DNA from: Callorhinchus milii
Taxonomy: Eukaryota
Direction of reading: 5' to 3'
DNA: 64,000 nt
NCBI RefSeq assembly: GCF_018977255.1
Contig: NW_024704746.1
Coordinates: 36,270,001 to 36,334,000, forward strand
Numbering within the stretch: the first letter of the stretch is position 1; the number at the start of each line of letters is the position of its first letter. The notes under the pieces were generated by a model, which made no database searches, was not told the DNA's origin, and saw only the letters and a program-made list of their open reading frames with translations. The translations under genes were made by a program, and so were the position numbers. This document shows, in pieces, positions 7,500 to 42,420 of this stretch.

Positions 7500-8155
7500 G
7501 ACAGCATCACCATCCACGGTTGGAAACTATCTTGATAAGCCAGTCCGGATCCTTGGAGTCTTGTATGACCCACAACTATCCTTTCTACTCCACATCTGCA
7601 CCATGACCTGCTCTGCCTTTCCCCACCTCCCCAACATAGCTGTACCATTGTCTCACATCACAGGCCGCCGAAACCCTCATACACACTTTCATTACATCGA
7701 GGCTCAACTATGCAAACTTATTGCTTGTCGGCCTCCCCAACTCCGACCTCCACAGGCTGCTGATCATCCAGAACTCTGCGGCCCGTGTCCTCTCCCACAC
7801 TAGGCTCCACAACCCTATCACCCCCATCCTTGCCCAACTCCACTGGCTTCCCATCACACAGAGAATACAGTTAAAGATCCTGGTCCTCACCTTCGCCCCA
7901 CTATTGGCGGGCGGGCCTTCTGCCATTCTGCCCCCACCCTCTGGAACTCCATCCTGCAGTCCCTCCCCCTCGCTTGCCACCTTCAAGATCCATCTCAAGA
8001 CCCTCCTCTTCGACCATGCTTTCGATCTCCCTGCTTCCCCTACCCTTGCGCTCTCCACTCTCCCCGAACTCCAGCTTGGATTCGAAACTCTGTCTGTCCA
8101 GCATCTTTGGACGTCCTCCCAAAGTGAAAGGTGCTATACAAATGCAATTTTGTTG
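7500..8155 (+). mobile_element. L2-clade LINE 3' fragment (degenerate ORF2 end and tail)
   Basis: Translates to L2 ORF2 C-terminal motifs (IQNSAARVL...PITPILAQLHWLPITQRIQLKILVLTF; FKIHLKTLLF). Tail ends gtgaaaggtgctatacaaatgcaattttgttgtt. Confidence 0.85.
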
Positions 8156-12344: not shown

Positions 12345-12724
12345 TGTCAGCTTGGCTCAGTTAACATTCTCACCTCCAAGTCAGAAGGTTATGGGTTCAA
12401 GCCCCATGTCCAGATTTGTAACCCATATAGTCTATTGCTGACACTCCAATGCAATATTCGGGTGTGCTGTATTGTTGGGGGTGCCAGCCTTCGGATGAAA
12501 CGTTAAACCAAGGTCCGGTCTGTCTGACCATGTGGATATTAAAGATCTCATGGTATGATTTTAAAAAGGAGTTTTTTGCCCTGGTGTCCTGTCAAACAAT
12601 TTCCCAAATAAAATTGGTCGCTCACTATAGCTGTTCGTGGGACAATGACGTGGCAAATTGACTGCCACGTTTGCCCACAAAAAAGTCATGTGATAAGGTG
12701 CTATACCAAATGCAAGGATTATTA
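12345..12724 (+). mobile_element. Deu-domain (SacSINE1/AmnSINE-like) tRNA-derived SINE
   Basis: tRNA-like head (ttggctcagtt...gggttcaagccc), central ttcggatgaaacgttaaaccaaggtcc, L2-like tail aaatgcaaggattatta. Confidence 0.75.
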
Positions 12725-28054: not shown

Positions 28055-28879
28055 TTAAACCTTCTCGGCCGCTTCGACGTCTCGGCTCTCGGGAGGCGGG
28101 GCCCCGGCCCCTCGCCCCCGGCGCGGCGGCGGCGACGTCGACGGCGGCGAGTCGGCTGCCCACCTGCCGACCCTCCTGACCCCCGGGGCCACGCGGGGGG
28201 CGTTGGTGCACGGGTTCCGGTCGTAGACCACCAGCTGCAGCCGGGGCAGCCCGACCAGACTGGGGAAGAGCCGGATCCCGTTCCGGTCCACGTCGATGAG
28301 CTCCAGCGAGTCCATGCGCAGCAGAACGGCGGGGAAGTGGCTGAGGAGGTTCCCGGAGATCCAGAGGCGCTGCAGCTGCCGCAGCTGCACGAGCTGCTCG
28401 GGCAGAGCCGACAGCTGGTTGTCGCCGGCGTGCAGGGCGCTGAGCCGCCGGAGCCGGCACACCACCCGGGGCAGGGCCTCGAACCGGTTGGTCTCGATCC
28501 ACAGGGCCCTCAGGTCGGTCAGGGCGCTCAGCTCGGCCGGCAGGTCGCTCAGCCGGTTGTTGCCCAGGTACAGCACCGACAGGCCCCGGAGCCGGCACAC
28601 GGCCGGCGGCATCTCGCTGAAGGTGTTGAAGTCCAGGGCCAGGGTGTGCAGGCGGCTCAGGCGGCTCAGCTCGGCGGGCAGGCGGCTCAGCCGGTTGTCG
28701 CTCAGGTAGAGCCGGAGCAGCGCCGTGAAGGCGCAGAGCCGCGGCGGCAGCCGCCGGAGCCGTCTGCCGCTCAGGTCCAGCGTGCGGTCGGCCGGCGGGT
28801 CCTGGACGTCGCCCACCAGGTACTCCTGGCACGGCTCGGCCGGGAACAGGGCCACCGCCGAGTCGATCAGGTTACCCAT
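28055..28879 (-). CDS. LRRC10: Leucine-rich repeat-containing protein 10 (cardiac), single coding exon, 274 aa
   Basis: ATG at 28879 (MGNLI...); the ORF-track start at 28936 is a GTG. LRR units (LYLSDNRLSRLP, LALDFN, LYLGNNRL, LWISGN, IDVDRN) and the C-terminal YDRNPC.NAP.V..GVRRVGRWA signature. Syntenic position after CCT2. Confidence 0.93.
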   Translation of the reverse strand: MGNLIDSAVALFPAEPCQEYLVGDVQDPPADRTLDLSGRRLRRLPPRLCAFTALLRLYLSDNRLSRLPAELSRLSRLHTLALDFNTFSEMPPAVCRLRGLSVLYLGNNRLSDLPAELSALTDLRALWIETNRFEALPRVVCRLRRLSALHAGDNQLSALPEQLVQLRQLQRLWISGNLLSHFPAVLLRMDSLELIDVDRNGIRLFPSLVGLPRLQLVVYDRNPCTNAPRVAPGVRRVGRWAADSPPSTSPPPRRGRGAGAPPPESRDVEAAEKV

Positions 28880-28935
28880 TCCGCCCGTCCCCGTGTGTGT
28901 GGAACTCAGCCCCAGAGGCGGTGTGAACCGATACA

Positions 28936-29220
28936 CTGACTGACTACTGACTGATCACTTACTGATTGATCACTGACTGATCACTGACTGACTACTGACT
29001 GATCACTGACTGATCACTTACTGACTGATCACTGACTGACTACTGACTGACTGACTACTGACTGATCACTGACTGACTGATCACTGACTGACTACTGACT
29101 ACTGACTGACTGACTACTGACTGATCACTGACTGACTACTGACTGATCACTGACTGACTGATCACTGACTGACTACTGACTGATCACTGACTGACTGACT
29201 ACTGACTGATCACTGACTGA
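28936..29220. repeat. Compound (ACTG)/(ACT)/(GATC) microsatellite, about 285 bp
   Basis: ctgactgactactgactgatcactgac... read directly. Confidence 0.95.
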
Positions 29221-29249
29221 TGTGCGGAGCCGAACGTGACCCTCAGCCC

Positions 29250-29485
29250 CGAGCACCATATAAAGTTAGTTTTGGTCTCACATTCCCTCCCCTTTTCTCC
29301 CCTCCGCAATTTCAAAGCTTCTATCACTTGCCCAGTCATCACTTGGAGTTGCAATCAAATGTGTGGTACCCATCCGAGTCCTCACCCCCCACACCCCACC
29401 CTCCACCCCCCACATTCCACCCCCACACCCCCAAAAAATAAATAAATACACTTAATAATCCGTCACGTGCTCGTCAAGTGCTTCA
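29250..29485 (-). promoter_or_regulatory. LRRC10: Putative LRRC10 cardiac promoter
   Basis: CArG/TATA-like CCATATAAAG at 29256-29265, MCAT CATTCC at 29281 and 29413, GATA (TGATAG on minus) at 29321, NKX2-5 elements CACTTAA at 29449-29455 and TCAAGTG at 29474-29480. Confidence 0.6.
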
Positions 29486-29569
29486 ATAATGCGCGAAATT
29501 GCCACGGGAATGTTTTCTTTTTTTCACGGGGGGGACCCGTGCACTTCAGCGCAGCCAAACACCACAAGA

Positions 29570-29755
29570 AGAAGTTGGTCGCTTTCGATCCACCGCCGTC
29601 TGCGGGGCGCGGCCGCGGGCAATCGGCCGCCGCCGCCGGGTTTCGCCCACAAATCCACGGTCAATTTCGCTGTACCGTCTATTCTGCGAAGCGCTTTGGG
29701 ACGTGGAGAAGACGCGAGAAGCGCTATGTCAAATGCAAGGATTATTATTATTTAT
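29570..29755 (+). mobile_element. SINE 3' half, strongly GC-shifted
   Basis: Aligns nearly gaplessly to the SINE copies at 20741 and 40131, but most differences are AT-to-GC. Confidence 0.85.
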
Positions 29756-30442
29756 CATTATTTATTCTGTCGCTGTTCTAACGTGGTATTATTTTATTGT
29801 GTAAGTAAGTGTAAGTTTTGTTCCGAACGGCAAGTCAGCAAATTGAATTTGTATTTCCCATTATCTTGTCTGAATACTAAATCAAAAAGCCTTTCTTAGC
29901 ATTAGGTTTTGCTGATACTCCAAGCATTTTTTTTGCCCAAACCTTCTAATGTTATTCTATACATGTTGAATCATTAATTATTAGTATTCTTTTCCCTGAA
30001 AAATCTGAAAATTGGGTTCAGATAGAGTGTCTCTTTTTTTGAAAAAAATCTCAAACCCAATTTAACACACCCTCCCACCCAATCCCTCTTTTCTTCAGAA
30101 ATGCTATGTTTGGTTATATTAACGGCTTCAATGGCTTCCTTGTTAACTTATTCCATGAATCCGTAAAAATGTTGCCCTCTATTTTCCTTACTCTTAAATT
30201 TGTGGGCACTAGTATTCAAACCCTTCTGCCATTGGGAAGTTCAGCTTCTACAATTCAATTGGGGTTTAATTTCTGATATTGACTAACGGGTGAACCCACC
30301 CGGATTATAAAAGGTTATATTGGGGTTCTTGACATTTTAGAACATTGTCAAAGTCCCCCCAAAAAAGCCTGAAATGAATGATGGGTGGTGAAGCTCTGTT
30401 AGGCATCCCTTTTCGCCAAAACCCACCTCTGAATAATAATAA

Positions 30443-30870
30443 TAATAATCCTTGCATTTGATATAGTGCCTTTCACATCATTGAGACGTCTCAAAGCGCA
30501 TCACAGGTTATACTGTAAAGTGGGTTGACTGTGTATTTTGTGGCCATAGCTCAACAGACAGTTGTAGACAGCAATGTCCCACAAACAGTCATGGAGTGAG
30601 TGACCAAATTTTTTTGGCGGTTGTTGGCTAGGACACCAGGAGAAACTCCCTTCTCTTTTCAAATAGTGCCGTTGGATCTTTAACGTCCACCTGAACGTCC
30701 AAACGGGACCTCGGTTTAATGTTTCATCCGAAGGACAGCACCTCCGACAATGCAACAACCCCCCAACACTGCATTTGAGTGTCAGTTTAGACAATGTGGG
30801 GTTTGAATCCACAACCTCCTGACTCAGAGGCGAGAGTGCTACCAAGCGCAAGACTGACACACCAACGCGG
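30443..30870 (-). mobile_element. Full-length Deu-type tRNA-derived SINE
   Basis: Minus strand has head tggtgtcagtcttgcgcttggtagcactctcgcctctgagtcaggaggttgtggattcaaacccc, central cttcggatgaaacattaaaccgagg and tail aaatgcaaggattattatta. Confidence 0.85.
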
Positions 30871-33699
30871 TACAAGGTGATTGGATTTGCCCTTCAGCGT
30901 CCATCTGAAGCTCCAGAGAGTCATATCAGTCCGGCCGAAGGTGACCTTGACCCTTTCAGTGTGGGCAGATTGGCTGGGAACTTGCAACATAGTAAGGAGA
31001 GGGGAAAAAATGTTCTGTTTGTGTGGAGAATTGCATTTTCACTGCTTGCAAATGTGTTTGCTAAATGTTCATATAGGATTCTCCTTTACACTCTTAAACA
31101 TGTTCAATTGAATCATCTTCGTAAACAATTATTTTACATAGAGAATAAGCAAGTTTCTGTAAATTTGATCACAATTTATACTTTTATTACTTGGAATCAT
31201 CATCTGCTCACTTCTGCAGCCTCTGAAAGGCAATAATATGCTTCCGTTGATTAGATGACCAGATCTCCAGACAAGGGCTCTGACAAATGCCTTAAATAGC
31301 AATGATATAACCTCGTCTGGCTTGTACTCTGTCCCTTTGCTATATCTAATCTGCAATGTTTTTTTNACCGCAGCATTTTTTTACACTGCATTTTCTAGGA
31401 ATCAAATTTACTGTGCCAATCTTAAGTCAGAGTAACAAATCGTATCTGGCTGTTCATACAGTATTTTGCTTCCCAATAAAATACAAAAATCTGACTTGTG
31501 TATGAATTTCAAAGGGGCAACGTACTACAGTTGAACTCCGCTACAAATGTGTTTTTTTGTCCTAATGTTTACTTTTAACGTAATTGGGCTATGGCCCCTG
31601 ACATTTTCTTACATAAAAATCCAAACTCCTGACATTACCAAATCTGCTGTCGTACTTCAAATCGCCCTGAAAATCCTGTTGCTGTGCTTGAAAACACAGT
31701 AACAGAATTTGTAGCACAAAAACAATGTGATTTGAAGTGTATCACCATGATCTTACATCTGCTGTAATGGAGCTGACCAGCTTCCTGCGACGGGGTCAGT
31801 GATATCATCAGTCATTCGATTACGATTCAACACGATTCATAAACACTGACCGGCTTTTGATTACGTCCTATTACAAGTCAGGTTGGAATATCATGGACCT
31901 TAAATGTTGCCTATACAGGGATCTGATGTACCTAATGATAATTCTTGCGTTTGATACCATGCCCGCCTGATCATATTAAGACGTCTCAAAGTCCTTCACA
32001 GATTTTTTTTTCAGTTAAGTGTAGTGACTGTATTTGTATACAAATGCAGCAACCAATTTGTGCACATTAGTGTCCCCAAAACAGCTATGATGTGACTTGA
32101 CCAATTTATTTTTTATCTGGAGGACTGTTGTCCAGGACATTGGGATATATCAATGGCAAGCTATGCAATTTTACCTGGTTCAACTCCAGCAATACCAGAA
32201 TGCACACTCTGGGGCTACCAACCTGCGCCTAATACTTTCCAGAATTAGGTAAGCAGGATGCATCACTCCAGGGAGAGAGTGCGCATTCCAACAATCTATC
32301 TCTAGAATTGCAATGTGTAGGTGGGATGCATGGACTTCTCAGTTTGGTTTTGATACTCTTAAGCACGGGATGGGTTTCCGCAGGTGTCAAACACCAGGCT
32401 GATCAATAAAAAGGACATTGCGAGAAGCACTTCTCTTTTTGAAAAGCAGCACAGGATCTGATCTTTAAATAACCTCCTGAACAGGGAGACCTTGCATCTG
32501 AACAAGGAGCTTGTTAAGGTCTTATCCAAATCATGACACTTCCAAAACCTCTGTTTATGCAGTGTTCTTCTTTTGAACCATTGAGGAACATTCAATTAAC
32601 ATCACTGAGGAACTTTCAAAAGAAGATTTTTTAAGGTTAATAAAAATTGGATTGCTATACCTTCTCTGTGATAATTAAAGTAATAATAACCCATTCTGGA
32701 GTTACACATCTTTCTGTGAAATTGTGATTTTTACAGTTCCCATTGAATTGATTGTTACTTTCCTGGTACAAGTCACCCTAATACTGGGAGCCTAGCAGCT
32801 TCAGTCCCAGAAATATAAACAGCATGAGAAACTGACTGATATATTAGTTGCCTGATGACTTCTGTTTAGCAATATTTCCAAGGCTGGAGCCAAATGACGC
32901 AGTGAAGTAAAACCCACCTTGAATTATATATTTTGCTGCTGTTTTTTTNGTTTTAAATTTCCCCTCCCCAGCACTGCAAACAAAGTAAGTTGTTTTGGCA
33001 CATCTCGCCTGGCCTGTCAGTGTATTTATCTCACCCATCACTTTGCACTTCTTGCATTTGGCAGTCAGACAAAAAAAATGTTAGGAGTTTGATCTGTTCA
33101 AAACTTTGCTACCCGCATACTTACCCGGACCAAACTCCATACCACCATCTCATCAGTTCTAGCCAAATGGTTTGAAGCAAGCATTGGAAAGTGGGAAACT
33201 TTTTCATTTAGATAAATTAAATAGTTATGATATGTTCAAATTAATGGCAGACCAAACAAGAAACAATAGCAGTTAAAACAGAAAATATACTGACAGAGAC
33301 AAGAAACAAAAGAAAAAATAAGAAATTGAAAATACGGAAAGGTGAGAATGAGAGCAAGGGTTTTATAACCTTCATTTAGGATTTTTCAATATATATTTTT
33401 AAATATGGTAATATTGCCTGTAAATTCCCCCCAATATCTCAGTGACATTATTATTGTAATATTAAGTAACTCTTCATCAACACATTGCGAGAGGTGAATG
33501 TTAAAAAAATAAATTCACCGATCCAGGAGATATGGAATTTTCTGGAGATGCAAAGAGTTAAAAGTTTGCTTGTAGATTATTGACAAATTGTGTATTAGCT
33601 TTCCATGGATTTTGGCAACTGTTTTAGTCAAAATGTTCCATCAACAAACCTAGGTCAAGATGATCCTTAGCGCTGATCAAACACAGATTGTTGGACACT

Positions 33700-34345
33700 A
33701 TCAGGTATGAGCATCCAATGTTAGGACTGATACACTAGCCTTGCTAGATGGTTCACTAGATTAATACCTGGAACTAAGGGTCTTGATAGCAGGCTGGGTA
33801 AACTGGGGTTATATACCTTGAAGCAGTGGTGGCCAAACTTTTTGGTCGGCCAACAAAGTGAATTTTCTTGATTAAATATTTCTTGATTTACACCATAGAT
33901 CAAGAAATATTCAATCAAGAAAAAACTCAGTGCCTTGGGGCATCCTCCCAACGTGAAAGGCGCTATACAAATGTAAGTTGATGCTGTTGTTGGAAACACA
34001 CTATTGATCGAACATAGACTTACCAAAACTAGTGTGAATGTTTGTTGGGCCACTTCTGGCTCATGGGCCATGATTTGGCCACAAAGGGTCATGATTTGAT
34101 TGTGATATTCAAAATAATGGTAAAATTGACAAACCAGATAGTGGCCAACTCTTCCCTTTGGTAGAGGAACCATTACAAGGTGGCATAGTCTTAAAATCAG
34201 AACCAAGACAGACCTGAGGTCAGGAAGCATTTATTTATATAGAAGGTTGTGGAAGCTGCCAAGGTGGAATCATTAGGGATAGTAGAGGTATTAATTGGGA
34301 TTAAAAGATCTGTCAAGATCTAATAAACTGGTGGTATTTTCTTAA
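33700..34345 (+). mobile_element. Nested degenerate CR1 3' fragment with a hAT-like MITE (about 33823-34085) and an L2/SINE tail
   Basis: CR1-like ataccttga and aggtcaggaagcatt...aatgggctgaaattcctcc. hAT-like end cagtggtggccaaacttttt with opposite end gggccatgatttggccac. Confidence 0.45.
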
Positions 34346-34712
34346 TGGGCTGAAATTCCTCCGATTGCTCATTTCATTCAATCAAATAGCGGTCTGCAAA
34401 ATAGCGGTATCCCGTAAATGTATTCTGTATTTTAAACAAAATATTACAATTACATTTGAGAAATAGAACCATTAATGATCTTCATAATCCTATGTACAAC
34501 AAACTCAAAGACGGTGTAAAATCTTGGATGTGAAATTATATTAGAGAAGAGTACTTTAGAAAGATAACATTACTTGTTAATTTATTTTGCTACTGGAATA
34601 ACTTGCAATGGAGATGTACAAACTTCAGTTCAGATTATCAGCTGTTTCACAATTTAAACTGTAGGCTTTGTGATGCCAAGTGGCGCTGATCTCCTTTGTT
34701 GATTTTAGTGCA

Positions 34713-34741
34713 GGGTCTTGATGACCTGCAGGTTTTATAAA
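34713..34741 (+). promoter_or_regulatory. Nothepsin core promoter: ERE-like palindrome plus TATA box
   Basis: GGGTCTtgaTGACCT at 34713-34727 has one core mismatch to GGTCAnnnTGACC. TATAAA at 34736-34741 starts 83 nt before the ATG. Confidence 0.65.
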
Positions 34742-34818
34742 TTCAACAAATCCCGTTAGTATTAGGGATTTACACTGAGCTGATCACTTGTTCCTACATC
34801 TGTTGAGTCAAAGTAAGA

Positions 34819-42420
<7,602 letters not shown>

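Follow-up and report, generated by a model that had tools for sequence, protein, structure and literature searches.

Does the oestrogen receptor (ER) act directly on the nothepsin gene (nots) in Callorhinchus milii, the elephant shark? A sequence-only reading of one 64-kb stretch of this genome suggested that it may. The window, as we call the whole of that stretch, was said to hold three near-consensus oestrogen response elements (EREs) upstream of nothepsin, one of them next to a TATA box. We examine whether the elements are there, whether they are more than chance, and which receptor would read them. We argue that direct ER input through the element nearest the gene is the best account of this promoter.

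The gene and the palindromes upstream of it

The identity of the gene comes first. The nothepsin coding region runs from 34819 to 42420 on the plus strand and has 9 exons: 34819-34874, 36101-36281, 36955-37072, 37487-37605, 38176-38375, 38615-38737, 40359-40503, 42039-42137 and 42256-42420. All of its introns are GT-AG, the frame is open, and it encodes 401 aa with a signal-peptide-like start, an A1 propeptide and the catalytic DTGS and DTGT motifs of an A1 aspartic protease (Pfam). The predicted product is an A1 aspartic protease, intact and of the secreted type. Its sequence is that of P0001, which is named Callorhinchus milii nothepsin, and is 1 residue away from NP_001279618.1, which is listed as elephant-shark nots (CalmilNot) in PMC13389413. 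Within the window the gene is flanked by TCP-1 exons and bestrophin exons. The nots neighbours in other species are cct2, lrrc10 and best3, the cct2/frs2-best3 block (PMC13389413). The downstream gene had been claimed to be nothepsin, and both the identity with P0001 and the matching synteny confirm this. By its identity to a nots-clade sequence and by its synteny, the gene as predicted is the nothepsin orthologue. Two predicted isoforms with alternative N-termini look like annotation variants. The presence of nots in cartilaginous fishes was first reported by PMC13389413, where its role is called largely unknown.

An ERE is taken here as the inverted repeat RGGTCA-nnn-TGACCY with at most one mismatch, and the 13-bp core class is kept apart from the 15-bp class that includes the flanks. 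Site 1 is the proximal imperfect ERE at 34713..34727, which is -106 to -92 from the nothepsin ATG. One of its half-sites is perfect and the other has one mismatch. Site 2 is an imperfect ERE at 33652..33666, -1,167 from the ATG, in single-copy DNA. Site 3, also an imperfect ERE, is at 30939..30953 (-3,880 from the ATG). No strand is assigned to any of these palindromes. The three elements that had been claimed at 34713, 33652 and 30939 are all present. Each of the 3 matches the classical pattern with a single mismatch in the 10-base core, and each has purine/pyrimidine flanks.

A scan of the whole window finds 0 perfect, 4 one-mismatch and 18 two-mismatch 13-bp cores, and sites 1-3 are the sole 15-bp matches with at most one mismatch. 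The fourth one-mismatch core is at 12516-12530. It has poor flanks, lies about 2 kb before a GC-rich region (14-16 kb) and is likely background.

Repeats were considered as a source of the three sites and rejected. The flanks of sites 2 and 3 match themselves alone, in searches that skip very common words, and site 1 is outside the high-depth repeat bins. High-copy repeat fragments are found at 33820-33990, between site 2 and the promoter, and at 35270-35400 in intron 1.

Clustering and the chance of it

Short palindromes turn up anywhere in a large genome. The cluster could be chance or vestigial, and any oestrogen response of chimaera nothepsin would then be indirect or would go through other enhancers. 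We regard this as unlikely. The sequence-only reading gave a chance rate of 1 per 34 kb, and the rate measured in 34 background loci of 10 kb is close to it: 11 one-mismatch 13-bp cores in 339,993 bp, or 1 per 31 kb. The Poisson probability of at least 3 such cores in 5 kb is 6e-4, rising to 3e-3 if the upper 95% limit is taken. Across the 991.5 Mb of the whole genome there are 6,710 sites of the 15-bp class (1 per 148 kb). For this class the probability of at least 3 in 5 kb is 6e-6, and that of finding one no more than 150 bp from a given ATG is 0.001. Dinucleotide shuffling of the upstream 5 kb, repeated 3,000 times, never yields three sites. Over the 64-kb window as a whole the count of 13-bp cores is ordinary, with P(>=3) = 0.34, so the signal is the clustering before nothepsin. 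This clustering exceeds chance and is non-random.

It must be said that the 5-kb span was chosen after the sites had been seen, which weakens the clustering argument and helps the case for chance. The number of genes to choose from also matters. With about 20,000 genes, some 12 would be expected to have three 13-bp-class sites in 5 kb, but the same arithmetic gives about 0.1 gene for the 15-bp class. Nor was nothepsin picked blindly, since its orthologues make it an oestrogen target a priori, and one of its sites abuts the TATA box. Both of these points tell against chance. Genome-wide there is no enrichment. Perfect EREs number 230 versus 289 for a reversed control, and the reversed pattern of the 15-bp class has 7,860 sites. 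Since EREs are unenriched against this control, most such sites in the genome are probably neutral.

The class can also be judged by the loci that carry it. Elasmobranch vitellogenesis is under oestrogen control. The vitellogenin genes of the same genome serve as the positive control. There are four vitellogenin gene starts on C5, minus strand, with ATGs at reverse-complement positions 7794, 8320, 7943 and 8009 of L001-L004. AGGTCA-nnn-TAAC is found at -313 to -356 from the ATG in all 4 promoters. Three of these EREs are in the one-mismatch class; the fourth deviates at two positions. Their half-sites are in the same alignment columns and are invariant, the spacer is variable, and mean identity is 66%. 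In three of the promoters a second, degenerate palindrome is found 21-26 bp upstream; in 2 of these it is a two-mismatch form at a distance of 21-25 bp, and in the third it is a weaker aligned copy. Each vitellogenin start is also preceded by a TATA-like box, at -46 relative to its ATG. Three vitellogenins are cited for the elephant shark (PMC10015161), and vitellogenin domains dominate its liver ESTs (PMC3466250).

The paralogous protease loci give the other side of the comparison. No one-mismatch ERE is found at cathepsin D in 30 kb around exons 2-4 and upstream (exon 1 unlocated), and none is found in 10 kb at the renin locus. Since the vitellogenins have EREs and cathepsin D and renin do not, the class marks expected oestrogen targets, in a sample of 4 and 2. 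That the class is found at vitellogenin promoters and not at related protease loci tells against chance.

The proximal and distal sites

Site 1 had been claimed to lie 8 bp before a TATA box. This is correct, as TATAAAT begins at 34736 (34736..34742, plus strand), 83 bp before the nothepsin ATG. The next TATAWAW upstream on the plus strand is at 33390. A start site is predicted near 34764-34768, and there may be a non-coding exon further upstream of the gene. Other instances of this arrangement can be sought in the genome, where 33 matches combine a looser ERE-like pattern with a TATA box lying 4-20 bp after it. Ten of the 33 were taken for inspection, and among the matches listed none is linked to a known oestrogen target. 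One of these has a FABP-like exon about 4 kb downstream of it. At L041:1875-1904 (C10:19246875-19246904) a perfect ERE is followed by TATAAAA with the 8-bp spacing seen in nothepsin; no downstream gene was identified within 8 kb of it.

Comparison of the promoter across species had been proposed as a check. The comparison made here is with one relative (organism B) and covers the site 1 region alone at the letter level. A contig of organism B is collinear with about 33400-35134, a span that includes the region of site 2. It aligns in two pieces around the repeat at 33820-33990, so the distance from site 2 to the promoter may differ there. Against 34545-34890 it has 37 differences in 325 aligned bases (~12%), plus one 21-bp deletion. 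The 39-bp block at 34708..34746 (no strand), which takes in site 1 and the TATA box with the spacer between them, has 0 differences among the 32 of 37 that are listed. By permutation, P is 0.019 for the 29 bp from the ERE to the TATA box and 0.13 for an unchanged 39-bp run anywhere in the compared stretch. Site 1 is unchanged in the one relative, among the differences listed, but the ERE alone lacks significance (P 0.135), which is a point for chance. A TATA region would be conserved whatever the role of an ERE beside it. The unchanged ERE-TATA block is consistent with constraint, and its support is modest.

Among the differences listed, organism B has a second unchanged run of 28 bp at 34765-34792, which spans the predicted start site and 5' UTR. 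Of 24 listed runs 7 were used, and in the five of these that are not from the relative (X5, X6, X7, X9, putatively RNA, and X13; tissues unspecified) there are 0 spliced contigs over nothepsin exons 1-2, which counts neither for nor against expression or the predicted start. An unspliced contig of 284 bp from run X5 spans the TATA region. Contigs of X5 and X6 extend into introns and may be DNA carry-over.

Two weaker liver-type motifs had been claimed beside site 1. The C/EBP-like motif near 34645 is present as a weak 10-mer on the plus strand at 34644..34653. It is unchanged in organism B among the differences listed, with changes at 34639-34641 and 34654. However, this motif must be called weak because it is common, with 127 in 340 kb. 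The HNF1-like motif near 34576 has to be dropped. The full HNF1 consensus is a 13-bp palindrome, GTTAAT-n-ATTAAC. The match at 34576..34581 on the plus strand is a 6-bp half-site, the window has 40 such half-sites and no full site, and we reject it as an element. A search for HNF4 and RORE motifs returned nothing in the interval between nothepsin and the neighbouring leucine-rich-repeat (LRR) gene.

Even if the sites are real, they need not belong to ER. One can suppose that they are nuclear-receptor elements read mainly by other receptors: site 3 by ERR, LRH-1, SF-1 or COUP-TF, perhaps for the LRR gene, and the proximal sites as AGGTCA half-sites. We consider this improbable for the proximal sites and site 3 taken together, and site 3 is where it draws its evidence. 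The minus strand of site 3 contains TCAAGGTCA at 30942-30950, a perfect ERR/NR5A site. It fits both the ERR consensus TNAAGGTCA (PMC10178695) and the NR5A (SF-1/LRH-1) consensus YCAAGGYCR (PMC3905875). Site 3 is alone in matching either monomeric consensus. Sites 1 and 2 are without the YCA/TNA extension (the 5' extension of site 1 is not of the ERR/NR5A type), and they have two half-sites in inverted-repeat-3 geometry, which argues against half-site reading there. LRH-1 co-binds EREs together with ER (PMC3905875), so an ER circuit could well include a composite element.

Site 3 also has the same 13-bp core as the oxytocin CHRE (PMC5880406; PMC1868778), a composite element linked to ERb, thyroid and retinoic acid signals, SF-1 and COUP-TFI (PMC5880406). 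This identity can be counted in favour of other receptors, as can the rarity of the exact composite form, which only 9 of the 6,710 class sites have, but the form is unenriched against the control, which has 11. The oxytocin element is at about -165 in oxytocin promoters, whereas two divergent genes lie kilobases away on either side of site 3. Convergence is the best reading of the match.

The second of these divergent genes is a single-exon LRR gene at 28055..28879 on the minus strand, with its ATG at 28879. It is putatively LRRC10, which is a heart-expressed gene. The name is given because of synteny with the neighbours listed in PMC13389413. A degenerate short tandem repeat of TCAG-rich units (28940-29230) is directly upstream of its ATG. 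Site 3 is nearer to this ATG (2,060 bp) than to that of nothepsin (3,880 bp), which would suit a receptor acting on the LRR gene, but there is no MEF2 or CArG motif in 28800-34900. We put it at about even odds whether site 3 serves nothepsin, through ER with LRH-1, or the LRR gene, through ERR.

Probable oestrogen control of nothepsin here and its induction elsewhere

Direct ER input to nothepsin through site 1 is the reading we prefer, and we would give it a probability of roughly 0.65. An ER dimer loaded with oestradiol would sit on the imperfect palindrome of site 1, some 40-50 bp above a predicted start near 34765, and site 2 at -1.17 kb would probably assist it. Females making yolk would then switch nothepsin on in the liver alongside the vitellogenins, and the protease may have a role in processing yolk precursors. 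The ERE-bearing promoter of nothepsin is real and is probably functional. The receptors of this animal are suited to the task, as elephant-shark ERa1-3 and ERb react to oestradiol and have retained the CEGCKA P-box (PMC13026664). The non-random clustering, the oestradiol-responsive receptors and the vitellogenin EREs together make a direct circuit likely. That much of the claim by the sequence-only reading stands, but the conservation of site 1 is modest, site 3 is ambiguous and HNF1 is of no help.

Orthologues of the gene are induced by oestrogen in other vertebrates. Zebrafish nots shows an 87-fold induction in E2-treated males (PMC2678157), and brown trout nots is induced over 4,475-fold (PMC4556936). 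In the laying hen the orthologue is 35-fold over pullets (PMC3495648) and its product is present in yolk (PMC3495648, PMC6839265). The induction of chicken nothepsin has been attributed, second-hand, to ERb (PMC6928644). The chicken also offers a last point in favour of chance. We take ENSGALG00000010018 to be the chicken nothepsin orthologue. In a chicken liver ERa ChIP study, ENSGALG00000010018 is E2-induced and is missing from the direct-target table, from which VTG1 and APOV1 are also missing and in which VTG2 is included (PMC8190866). The absence of the orthologue is weak counter-evidence because VTG1 and APOV1 are absent too. About half of the chicken ERa sites are without an ERE (PMC8190866).

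A broader scenario is possible, and we hold it as tentative and rather doubtful. A liver oestrogen regulon, with direct EREs on nothepsin and every vitellogenin gene, would already have existed in the last ancestor that all jawed vertebrates share, and at the ERE-8 bp-TATA core of nothepsin ER would contact the basal machinery directly. If this is true, sharks, skates and bony fishes should have the same ERE-TATA architecture. In teleosts and hens few liver genes respond to oestrogen as strongly as nothepsin. A 30-bp ERE-TATA cassette, together with the cloned receptors and the vitellogenin elements, makes the DNA-level wiring of the yolk programme in the earliest jawed vertebrates directly testable. 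Nothepsin could also serve as a marker of oestrogen exposure for chondrichthyans. A literature search, with most subscription journals outside its scope, found no description of EREs in the promoter of nothepsin or of a chondrichthyan vitellogenin. PMC2933242, PMC10015161 and PMC3466250 are silent on the sites. Since both the element and the class of gene are well known, the result is expected and not surprising.

Several known systems bear comparison. The oestrogen-induced hepatic nothepsin of teleosts and chicken (nots; CTSEAL) is encoded by the orthologue of this gene and shares its syntenic block (PMC13389413). It differs in that induction has been measured there, whereas the elephant-shark gene is known here from its sequence. 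Promoter EREs are known from Xenopus vitellogenin A2, the Xenopus B1/B2 oestrogen-responsive unit and chicken VTG2. Like the sites of nothepsin these are imperfect inverted-repeat-3 palindromes, and each gene has more than a single one. The second palindromes of three elephant-shark vitellogenins resemble the paired unit of Xenopus vitellogenin B1. Vitellogenin EREs precede the TATA box by about 270-310 bp and are paired 21-26 bp apart, whereas site 1 of nothepsin abuts the TATA box and the nothepsin sites are kilobases apart. Angiotensinogen is another gene expressed in the liver. The human gene has, as nothepsin does, a one-mismatch ERE directly beside its TATA box (PMC1868778). The order of the two is different, since the ERE comes after the TATA box in angiotensinogen and precedes it by 8 bp in nothepsin.
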